From: Armatimonadota bacterium
Lineage (GTDB): Bacteria > Armatimonadota > Zipacnadia > Zipacnadales > UBA5352
DNA length: 28,339 nt
Reading direction: 5' to 3'
Assembly (NCBI GenBank): GCA_034722055.1
Contig: JAYENL010000216.1
Coordinates: 1 to 28,339, forward strand
Positions within the stretch are counted from its first letter, which is position 1. Each line of letters opens with the position of its first letter. Below are positions 16,277-18,213 of the stretch, one piece after another. The translations under genes were made by a program, and so were the position numbers. The notes beneath the pieces were generated by a model that was not told where the DNA came from, searched no databases, and saw nothing but the letters and a program-made list of their open reading frames with translations.

Positions 16277-16305
16277 TTGACACCGCGGCACTTGTGTTGT
16301 AGTCT
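16277..16305 (+). promoter_or_regulatory. Sigma-70/sigma-A promoter of the tcmP operon
   Basis: Perfect TTGACA (16277-16282), 17-nt spacer, TAGTCT (16300-16305). Confidence 0.75.
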
Positions 16306-16311
16306 ATTCAT

Positions 16312-16325
16312 CGAATATCTGTTCA
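16312..16325. promoter_or_regulatory. Candidate LexA (SOS) box, GAAC-N4-GTTC type
   Basis: CGAATATCTGTTCA: GAAT-ATCT-GTTC, one core mismatch from the Firmicutes/Actinobacteria-type box. Lies at the expected +1. Confidence 0.5.
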
Positions 16326-16352
16326 TACGCAATGAGGTGAGGGGGCATACAG

Positions 16353-17498
16353 ATGACCGATGACGAGTACTGGGACGCACCGACACCACAGTCATGTGTC
16401 AAGATGGCGATAGTCGAGAAGTACTTCGATGCCTGGTCCAACGTGATCCTCGCCAAGACGAGACGTGATCTCTGTTATGCAGATCTGTATGCAGGACGCG
16501 GCAAGTATAACGACGGTACGCTCTCAGTTCCGCTCCGCATTCTCGATCATGCAGTTCGCGACCCACGGCTCCGCCAACGCTTGAGGACCGTATTCAACGA
16601 TGGGGACCGGGAAACAGCAGAGATCTTGGAGAGAAACATCACATCACTACCTGGCGTTAGCGACCTGCGCCATGAGCCGAGGGTGATGTGCCTCTCCGTC
16701 GGCGCCGATGATGAGGAACTGCTGCAGGCCATACCGAGTGTCCCGACGGTCACCTTTCTGGATCCGTTCGGGTACACAGGGATCTCACTGGACCTCATCA
16801 GTACGCTAACATCGGGCTTCGGGTGTGAGTGCATCGTCTTCTTCAATACCAACAGGATCCGGGCAGCAGTGTCAAATCTGTCGGTGCAGGAGAGAATGAA
16901 GTACCTCTTTGGAGCGGCCGATTGGCCCGCGGTCCGTGCACGGATTGAGACGTTTCACGGTACCGCCCGGGAATTGGCCGTAATCGAGGAATTTGTTGCT
17001 GCGCTACAACGAAGAGGCATCCGCTATGGCCTTCCCTTTCGCGTGAGGAATGAGGCAGGCACCCGCGCCAGCCACCACCTCATTCACGTGAGCCGCCATG
17101 ACAAGGCATACACTATCATGAAGGAGATAATGGCTGCGGAGAGTTCAGGTGCTGGCGAGGGAGTACCGCGGTTCGAGTACAATCCCGCCGACGAGCGGTA
17201 CGAGATACTGTTCGAGTATGCCCGGCCGCTCACCGAGTTGAGAGACTTGCTGACCCACCGTTTCGCCGGTCAGACGTTGACCATGGAGGAGGTCTTCGAC
17301 CAGCATCACGTAGGCACACGATTCATCAAGAGGAACTACAAGAGTGTGCTTCGCCAAATGGAGGAGGATGGACTGATCAGAGCCAATCCTCCCACCGACA
17401 AGCGCCCCAAGCGCCATGGCAAACCTACGTTCGCAGACCACGTTTCAGTCACGTTCATTGCACCACAGGAGCAGGCCGATGGCCCGCTCACAGATTGA
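16353..17498 (+). CDS. tcmP: Three-Cys-motif partner protein TcmP (SAM-MTase-like fold, probable C-terminal winged helix)
   Basis: 'K..IVEKYFDAW', 'YADLYAGRG' (motif I-like), 'FLDPFG' (motif IV-like), 'YTIMKEIM'. Adjacent to a Gp37/Gp68 gene, as expected for this family. Confidence 0.85.
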   Translation: MTDDEYWDAPTPQSCVKMAIVEKYFDAWSNVILAKTRRDLCYADLYAGRGKYNDGTLSVPLRILDHAVRDPRLRQRLRTVFNDGDRETAEILERNITSLPGVSDLRHEPRVMCLSVGADDEELLQAIPSVPTVTFLDPFGYTGISLDLISTLTSGFGCECIVFFNTNRIRAAVSNLSVQERMKYLFGAADWPAVRARIETFHGTARELAVIEEFVAALQRRGIRYGLPFRVRNEAGTRASHHLIHVSRHDKAYTIMKEIMAAESSGAGEGVPRFEYNPADERYEILFEYARPLTELRDLLTHRFAGQTLTMEEVFDQHHVGTRFIKRNYKSVLRQMEEDGLIRANPPTDKRPKRHGKPTFADHVSVTFIAPQEQADGPLTD

Positions 17499-18213
17499 GT
17501 GGACGGACTCGACGTGGAATCCCGTCACGGGCTGCACCAAGATCAGCCCCGGCTGCGACCACTGCTACGCGGAGCGCATGGCGCGGCGGCTCAAGGCCAT
17601 GGGGCAGGAGAAGTACGCCGACGGCTTCGCGGTCCGGACGCATGAAGAGTGCCTCGCAGAGCCCCTGGAGTGGACGAAGCCGCGCGTCATCTTCGTCAAC
17701 TCCATGAGCGATCTGTTCCACAAGCACGTGCCGCTCGACTTTATCCAGGACGTTTTCGCGACCATGCACCAGGCGGATCAGCACATCTTCCAGGTGCTCA
17801 CCAAGCGCTCCGGGCGCATGGCGCAACTGGCGCCGAGCATCGACTGGCCCGAGAATGTGTGGGCGGGCGTCAGCGTGGAGAACCAGGATTACGCCTTCCG
17901 CCTGGATCACCTGCGCAAGGTGCGCGCGCGCATCCGCTTCGTCTCCTTTGAGCCACTCATCGGCCCGATCCGCGACGTGGACCTCACAGGCATCGACTGG
18001 GTGATCGTGGGCGGGGAGTCAGGCCCTGGCGCCCGGCCCATGGCGGAACAGTGGGTGCTTGACCTGAAAACACTGGCCGACGAGGCGAACGCCCCGTTCT
18101 TCTTCAAGCAGTGGGGCGGGACCAATAAGAAGAGGACAGGCCGGGAGCTGCTTGGCCGGACGTGGGACAAGATGCCTGAGAAGGCGAGTGGCCAGCCCGC
18201 TCTCTCGGCCTGA
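17479..18213 (+). CDS. Phage Gp37/Gp68 family (DUF5131) three-Cys radical-SAM-like protein (244 aa)
   Basis: IEWTDSTWNPVTGCTKISPGCDHCYAE (CX6CX2C), FVNSMSDLFH, FQVLTKR, SFEPLIG, WVIVGGESG, FFFKQWGG. AGGAG RBS; overlaps tcmP by 20 nt. Confidence 0.92.
   Translation: MARSQIEWTDSTWNPVTGCTKISPGCDHCYAERMARRLKAMGQEKYADGFAVRTHEECLAEPLEWTKPRVIFVNSMSDLFHKHVPLDFIQDVFATMHQADQHIFQVLTKRSGRMAQLAPSIDWPENVWAGVSVENQDYAFRLDHLRKVRARIRFVSFEPLIGPIRDVDLTGIDWVIVGGESGPGARPMAEQWVLDLKTLADEANAPFFFKQWGGTNKKRTGRELLGRTWDKMPEKASGQPALSA

Follow-up and report, generated by a model that had tools for sequence, protein, structure and literature searches.

The window analyzed here is a 28,339-nt stretch of an Armatimonadota genome (contig JAYENL010000216.1; the genome carrying it, hereafter G000, has a G+C content of 68%), and the element in question is a pair of genes within it: tcmP, whose product has a predicted methyltransferase fold, and duf5131, which encodes a predicted radical S-adenosylmethionine (SAM) enzyme of the phage Gp37/Gp68 family. 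tcmP and duf5131 make up a single operon that follows a predicted LexA operator, and the explanation that fits best, with a probability of roughly 0.4, is a damage-induced two-step DNA modification performed by the pair and used against phage or mobile DNA. As a kind of system the operon is known: PADLOC lists the pair among its predicted candidates, as PDC-M30/M41, and the locus is a further member of that family. A preliminary description of the locus overlooked the operator, which in this lineage speaks for action induced by damage over constitutive action.

The operator is a near-palindrome that starts five bases past the −10 element, lies over the predicted transcription start, and has one mismatch in its core. 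It was scored with a matrix made of six GAAC-N4-GTTC-type sites of G000, none from a tcmP locus, that precede lexA, uvrA, two DEAD-box helicase genes, a macro-domain gene, and the gene of a D12-class adenine methylase; the genome carries both lexA and recA. Here, the operator reaches 14.2 bits, which is rank 32 among 6,134,421 genome positions. The motif itself is supported, because the held-out matches at ranks 2 and 4 lie upstream of a DinB-type polymerase gene and a PHP-domain gene. The operon has, as a member of the LexA regulon would, a predicted genome-specific operator overlapping the predicted promoter, and LexA is predicted to bind there. The promoter had been described as near-consensus sigma-A; this holds for the −35 element, which is perfect, and fails for the −10 element, which has three of six consensus bases, and the scanner called no site here, the element pair being below its threshold. 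Similar −35 and −10 elements flank the LexA-type box in relatives too.

Among the order-level modules with readable upstream DNA, a box at or above the preset 12 bits is seen in seven of 14, and an eighth, with a perfect core and 11.8 bits, raises the tally to 8/14, while the downstream control regions have none (0/14). This tally also takes in two loci from the genome-collection search, and the related loci in it are not independent. The eight boxed modules comprise all five of the family, the module described here included, and others; two of the eight have duf5131 first. Five box-less genomes of the order contain lexA with a similar upstream site (8.3–16.1 bits), hence the absence of the box there looks real, and a universal SOS link for the module was rejected. 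For G000, damage inducibility of the module is very likely. Two side observations concern the same motif: the GAAC-N4-GTTC SOS regulon of G000 is spread over contigs C212, C308, C189, C93, C1, C87, C242, and C29, with no box in the 1.7 kb upstream of recA; and a second operator-like 16-mer (15.5 bits; 17419–17434), within the 3′ end of tcmP and 45 nt 5′ of the duf5131 start, may be a chance match or an internal control site.

A related pair is known from another phylum. In Mycobacterium tuberculosis, Rv2734, named as a relative of phage gp37, and Rv2735c lie beside recA-recX. BCG_2748c, which we take to be the equivalent of Rv2735c, is annotated with a three-Cys partner domain, and the two M. 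tuberculosis genes are presumably convergent rather than tandem, as we read it from their names and overlap. Mitomycin C induces Rv2735c 6.2-fold and Rv2734 3.7-fold, in one cluster with recX and recA (PMC5057432).

Profile searches bear out both family assignments of the preliminary description. TcmP scores 169.8 bits against TIGR04474 (cut-off 53), and DUF5131 scores 341.7 bits against PF07505 (threshold 28.9) and also matches phrog_2045. The two TcmP motifs that had been likened to motifs I and IV of amino-methyltransferases, DLYAGRG (residues 44–50) and LDPFG (136–140), do fall in an amino-methyltransferase-type fold with the catalytic residues in place, and the suspected winged-helix tail corresponds to PF22560 (GMT-wHTH). 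The predicted model (predicted local distance difference test score, pLDDT, 96; built from 131 sequences) is closest to RlmJ among solved folds (Z 16.5, root-mean-square deviation (rmsd) 3.5, 212 aligned residues), and Foldseek also ranks RlmJ first; next come a Legionella RlmJ homolog (Z 15.9) and Trm1 (Z 14.8, rmsd 3.6, 222 aligned residues). Several marks of N6-adenine amino-methyltransferases are present: motif I (D44–G50), the strand-2 acid (D83), the motif X Lys (K17), and the motif IV Asp (D137, in D137–G140). In 66 full-length sequences of very different subtypes, counted on ungapped rows, K17 is conserved in 62/62, D137 in 66/66, D44 and G48 in 63/63, and an acid at position 83 in 65/65.

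The (D/N)PP(Y/F/W) form of motif IV, typical of RlmJ and Dam, is absent from these 66 sequences, which have DP(Y/F/W)G instead; TcmP therefore lies outside the Dam/RlmJ family proper. The DP-aromatic-G form resembles that of Trm1. No Pfam or PDB sequence match links TcmP to Trm1, and the Trm1 fold scores below that of RlmJ. In RlmJ, a Lys of the first helix (K18) and the motif IV Asp (D164) are both required (PMC3814359), and K17 and D137 of TcmP match these residues by position and fold. Given these kept residues and the need of RlmJ for the Lys and the Asp, TcmP looks like an active amino-methyltransferase as far as its predicted model goes. The resemblance to RlmJ (23S rRNA m6A2030) thus covers the class I fold, the Lys of the N-terminal helix, and the motif IV Asp, whereas identity to RlmJ and to Trm1 (tRNA G26 N2) is 10–13%, and TcmP differs from both in its own C-terminal winged helix and in being mobile, patchy, allele-swapped, and always found with a radical-SAM enzyme.

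For the partner, the CX6CX2C triad noted earlier (C19, C26, and C29, followed by Y30) is invariant in 77 DUF5131 sequences and sits in a predicted radical-SAM fold of the spore photoproduct lyase (SP lyase) clade. The predicted model (pLDDT 90) has SP lyase as its closest solved fold (PDB 4fhc; Z 13.6, rmsd 2.9, 195 aligned residues), again ranked first by Foldseek, and its first 21 structure matches are radical-SAM proteins. RadicalSAM.org lists DUF5131 as a subgroup, placed together with SP lyase in megacluster 5 (PMC9477430). Residues were mapped to the lyase by an alignment of seven sequences, one of them a true lyase at 14% identity, anchored on invariant columns. Here, G18, C19, C26, C29, Y30, D78, T108, and K109 each align with a lyase column that is invariant; the corresponding lyase residues include C90/C94/C97, Y98, and the two SAM binders D143 and K174 (PMC3467042). 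Hence, DUF5131 shares with SP lyase (SplB; PF20903) the fold, the cluster triad followed by Tyr, and the SAM residues, with a Ser-Asp pair (S77-D78) for the methionine amine and a Thr-Lys pair for the carboxylate. It differs in the triad spacing (CX6CX2C against CX3CX2C), in having about 70 fewer N-terminal residues, so that the model aligns to lyase residues 72–341 only, and in having a methyltransferase partner.

A further difference concerns the hydrogen-donor cysteine of SP lyase (Cys140/141, or Cys77 in clostridial enzymes), which has no counterpart in the 77 DUF5131 sequences under this 14%-identity mapping: position 140 corresponds to an invariant Ser75, and no cysteine is found at the clostridial site, 14 residues before the triad. 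In the lyase, the C140S substitution leaves the substrate radical unquenched, and adducts arise (PMC3467042). The SP lyase profiles PF20903 and TIGR04070 do not match DUF5131 (Pfam E 0.01; NCBIfam E 0.1), and hhalign gives a probability of 21% against a true lyase and 94% against an SplB-like protein; sequence searches of the PDB gave no meaningful match for TcmP, DUF5131, or either alignment. TIGR04471, considered as the partner family, was rejected at 96 bits against a cut-off of 355. The closest DUF5131 in the genome collection is 85% identical and comes from Candidatus Zipacnadia. Of the 120 best long DUF5131 homologs, 27 (e.g., P0152, P0155, P0185) have an intein, mostly with a LAGLIDADG domain, inserted exactly at the third triad cysteine, which fits an essential site. 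A second DUF5131 gene of G000 (C98:7729–8445; 42% identical) lies in a prophage-like replication region with no tcmP nearby.

The distribution of the two families supports tight coupling of the proteins. In 61 related genomes TcmP is found in 16, DUF5131 in 23, and both side by side in 15; in the sixteenth TcmP genome (G035, locus L098) the next gene (2860–3618) encodes a PF20903 SP lyase-family protein that replaces DUF5131. An SP lyase-clade radical-SAM gene therefore adjoins tcmP in 16/16 genomes, while DUF5131 occurs without tcmP in 8/23. The co-occurrence stated in the preliminary description is also visible in natural fusions: among the 120 best long DUF5131 proteins, 64 are DUF5131-TcmP and six are TcmP-DUF5131 chains, 70 in all; single fusions join DUF5131 to Dam, HsdM, ParB, and HerA domains. 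In the Atlas, the 61 proteins of one cluster, each about 678 aa long, show structural alignment to TcmP, and 98% of them carry PF20903. Co-folding of TcmP with DUF5131 scored 0.00 and counts neither way. With 57 of the 301 genomes sampled from the phylum carrying the module, its presence is patchy and unlike that of a housekeeping gene. It is likely that TcmP and DUF5131 act jointly on a nucleic acid.

The two genes have different histories at this locus. G000, G003, G015, G007, and G011 share one divergent isomerase gene on the upstream side, hence the locus is old in the family. Between G003 and G015, which belong to one genus and share the locus, identity is 88% for the isomerase and 84% for DUF5131, against 37% for TcmP. 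Trees of 12 paired sequences (in which the tested groups were named after the identities had been seen, and the G001 partner is a half-length fragment at a contig end) place the five family members together for DUF5131 (100/99), with G003 next to G015 (99/97); for TcmP, G015 groups with G001 (100/100), and G003 with G000 and G010 (100/100). By approximately unbiased (AU) tests, the TcmP tree rejects G003+G015 (p-AU 5e-60), and the DUF5131 tree rejects G000+G003+G010 (p-AU 4e-6). The tcmP alleles have been swapped in front of a vertically inherited duf5131. The G+C content at third codon positions (GC3) of tcmP is 0.67, compared with 0.88–0.97 in neighbouring genes. Eight genomes have lost tcmP and kept duf5131, one copy of which is frameshifted; none of the eight has a box directly 5′ of the solo gene, and a single deletion could have removed tcmP and the adjacent box together. 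From the allele exchange, the AU tests, and these losses, it is the radical enzyme that stays and the methyltransferase that is exchanged and often lost, as would befit a subunit that sets specificity or acts as the effector. In G016, at what is apparently the locus of the window (L113), a MAE_28990-type HEPN gene, itself preceded by an unassigned gene, stands before a solo duf5131.

Neighbouring genes elsewhere were scanned for 89 of 133 candidate neighbours and five extra proteins. Type I restriction–modification (RM) genes lie beside the module in 5/80 loci, and other loci adjoin an MmeI-type recognition domain, Mrr, Schlafen, TIR, HEPN, or a DNA methylase; many other neighbours are unrelated housekeeping genes, all of these being plain counts. 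The PDC-M30/M41 candidates were found through embedding in BREX, DISARM, or type I RM systems (bioRxiv 2024.01.29.577857), and in Sinorhizobium a tcmP gene is listed beside the defence gene hna (PMC12445080). At least 181 phage records hold DUF5131, whereas two TcmP queries match at least five and at least seven records, lower bounds indeed, as both queries missed the copy of phage Angelique. In two of eight phage loci, both from temperate phages, tcmP stands directly behind the immunity repressor, convergent with duf5131. An annotated DNA methylase lies within 3 kb of three of the six solo phage duf5131 copies, which is weak evidence in such regions. As further observations, at locus L141 the module sits between gyrB and gyrA, and at the related L133 directly after gyrB, the TcmP type differing between the two; in four related loci the module comes after what we take to be uvrB; and at L048 (4575–6544) a solo duf5131 is followed by a DUF488 gene and then by a dual-OB-domain gene.

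In the proposed mechanism, DNA damage would release the LexA switch and turn the operon on. TcmP would then select the target and methylate the exocyclic amine of a base in a SAM-dependent manner, at adenine N6 if it acts like RlmJ or at guanine N2 if it acts like Trm1. The 5′-deoxyadenosyl radical of DUF5131 would abstract hydrogen at the methylated site, giving a hypermodified base or a cross-link; the radical would be coupled, not quenched, and coupling is preferred to repair because DUF5131 has no cysteine at either known hydrogen-donor position of SP lyase. We infer, beyond this, that the substrate is DNA, that methylation comes first, and that the product probably serves, as a weapon or a mark, in conflicts with phages or other mobile DNA. 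Methylation followed by radical chemistry at one and the same site has, in our estimate, even odds. A role in conflict is favoured over housekeeping repair by a narrow margin, the signs of conflict being the embedding in RM, BREX, and DISARM, the placement behind phage repressors, the allele exchange, the low GC3 of tcmP, and the HEPN gene in G016. A bolder version, which we regard as rather improbable, is a widespread damage-triggered writer of DNA lesions, in which an exchangeable RlmJ-type methyltransferase would choose and methylate a base, and an SP lyase-type radical enzyme without the quenching cysteine would run the lyase chemistry in reverse and leave a methylene-bridged cross-link or a new hypermodified base in order to halt a phage or mobile element; its phage counterpart, where the solo radical enzyme would work with phage methylases or undo the mark, seems similarly doubtful.

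Several observations weigh against damage-induced modification in conflict. RlmJ and Trm1, the best folds for TcmP, methylate RNA, and the DPPY form of motif IV is lacking. In SP lyases of the clostridial type, position 140 is Ser as well, yet these enzymes repair through another cysteine (PMC3467042), and DUF5131 could hold a hydrogen donor elsewhere. Beyond the order the box is found in only 2/23 further loci of the phylum, and in 0/27 Chloroflexota, 0/2 Bacillota, and 1/40 other loci, all scored with the G000 matrix rather than with the LexA motifs of these hosts. As Rv2735c lies 3′ of recA-recX, its induction may be read-through. Many neighbours of the module act in repair or replication (ruvB, fpg, gyrB/gyrA, a RecN/SMC-type gene), which agrees just as well with repair. 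Finally, the solo duf5131 is intact in 7/8 genomes without tcmP, and duf5131 is solo in 6/8 phage loci, hence the radical enzyme may act without TcmP.

Repair within the SOS response, with DUF5131 breaking a cross-link or other lesion and TcmP providing DNA binding, base flipping, or a priming methylation, is the main competitor, which we nonetheless consider unlikely. It draws on the SP lyase fold, on a LexA box common to uvrA, a DinB-type gene, and helicases, on the ruvB, fpg, and gyrase neighbours, and on the SplB-like radical-SAM genes that are members of SOS regulons elsewhere (PMC8565304, PMC3765255); moreover, TcmP could supply what the shortened lyase misses. Repair offers no obvious reason for the exchange of a partner between deep allele lineages, the frequent loss, the RM embedding, or the placement behind prophage repressors, and the absence of cysteine at both known donor positions and the presence in only 57/301 genomes count against it as well. 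Less likely again is a writer and eraser in the manner of the DarTG toxin–antitoxin, where TcmP would add a harmful methyl group, DUF5131 would remove it by radical demethylation, and the solo phage copies would serve as counter-defence. TcmP is indeed always accompanied by a radical-SAM enzyme, DUF5131 often stands alone, without the box in the eight genomes mentioned, it far outnumbers TcmP in phage records, and several tcmP copies carry stops or frameshifts. The likeness to DarT/DarG lies in one partner never being found alone and the other often, phages included; the chemistry differs, the frequent fusion into a single chain leaves little scope for toxin release, and one deletion could account for the joint absence of tcmP and its box. 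We take Rv0060 of M. tuberculosis to be darG. Saturating transposon data class Rv0060 as essential, and Rv2734 and Rv2735c as non-essential (PMC5241402), which weakens a strict essential-antitoxin model.

An RNA-modifying pair, acting on tRNA or rRNA by methylation and then radical chemistry, as for wybutosine, with translation arrest or protection under stress as the outcome, would agree with the RNA substrates of RlmJ and Trm1, the top TcmP folds. We hold it to be improbable, somewhat more so than the writer and eraser: the RlmJ active site is closest to those of DNA m6A methyltransferases (PMC3814359), the partner belongs to a DNA-lyase clade, and the Dam, HsdM, ParB, and HerA fusions and the RM contexts indicate DNA. 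Least plausible is a small-molecule product, a free nucleotide or other compound (such as a viperin-like chain terminator or signal) made or destroyed by the pair, with no polymer target. Viperin is the second-best DUF5131 fold (Z 11.2), and some TcmPs are short, at about 280 aa, and have no winged helix; however, SP lyase clearly outranks viperin and shares invariant columns with DUF5131, and the long TcmPs do have a winged helix.

With PADLOC models, DUF5131 scores 396 bits (PDC-M41B) and 378 bits (PDC-M30B), while TcmP scores 56 bits (E 7e-16; PDC-M30A) and only E 0.009 for PDC-M41A; these assignments follow from profile matches and gene adjacency, not from PADLOC's own score and coverage rules. 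The two-gene layout is likewise that of PDC-M30/M41, and the TcmP of the window is a distant allele. The candidate set contains 145 predicted systems, and the main text of the preprint does not name M30 or M41 (bioRxiv 2024.01.29.577857). The preliminary description knew of no established function for the pair, and our literature search, from which most subscription papers were outside, found no paper assigning one, no functional study of the TcmP/DUF5131 pair, and no anti-phage test of PDC-M30/M41.

The question reaches beyond this locus, as about a fifth of the sampled genomes of the phylum carry the pair, which also occurs in temperate phages, across many other phyla, and next to recA of M. 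tuberculosis. SP lyase is described as the earliest radical-SAM enzyme of DNA repair to have its structure solved (PMC3467042). An SP lyase relative with a methyltransferase partner and no quenching cysteine would represent new DNA chemistry, be it the writing or the repair of lesions. Handles for testing are provided by the SOS signal, residues K17 and D137 of TcmP and C19/C26/C29 and S75 of DUF5131, the natural fusions, and the two exchangeable TcmP alleles.

Table 1. Coordinates of the tcmP-duf5131 operon, its predicted control elements, and the downstream gene (positions in the window).
Feature	Position	Strand	Description or basis
Predicted sigma-70-type promoter	16277–16305	+	−35 TTGACA 16277–16282, 17-nt spacer, −10 TAGTCT 16300–16305
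Predicted LexA (SOS) operator, GAAC-N4-GTTC type	16311–16326	.	Matrix score; position kept in relatives
Predicted ribosome-binding site, 5′ of tcmP	16335–16345	+	Purine-rich run; sequence
tcmP, 381 aa	16353–17498	+	Class I SAM-dependent methyltransferase fold (predicted); GMT-like winged helix 275–348
duf5131 (phage Gp37/Gp68 family), 244 aa	17479–18213	+	Radical-SAM barrel of the SP lyase clade (predicted)
Family-4 uracil-DNA glycosylase	18219–18785	−	Convergent, downstream of the module; TIGR00758 above cut-off

The 20-nt overlap of the two genes reported earlier stands, with the ATG of duf5131 at 17479 supported by homologs (Table 1). The surroundings had been described as unrelated sugar genes, which is true only in part: the next gene downstream encodes a family-4 uracil-DNA glycosylase. 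No such gene adjoins the module in 80 related loci or in the other 15 order-level loci, hence it was rejected as a part of the module, and its position here is probably incidental; G000 has a second family-4 copy on contig C244. Further downstream, on the minus strand, 18789–19769 encodes an iron-sulfur protein that weakly resembles reductive dehalogenase and QueG, scoring under the cut-off for each; it is syntenic in G010 and G016.

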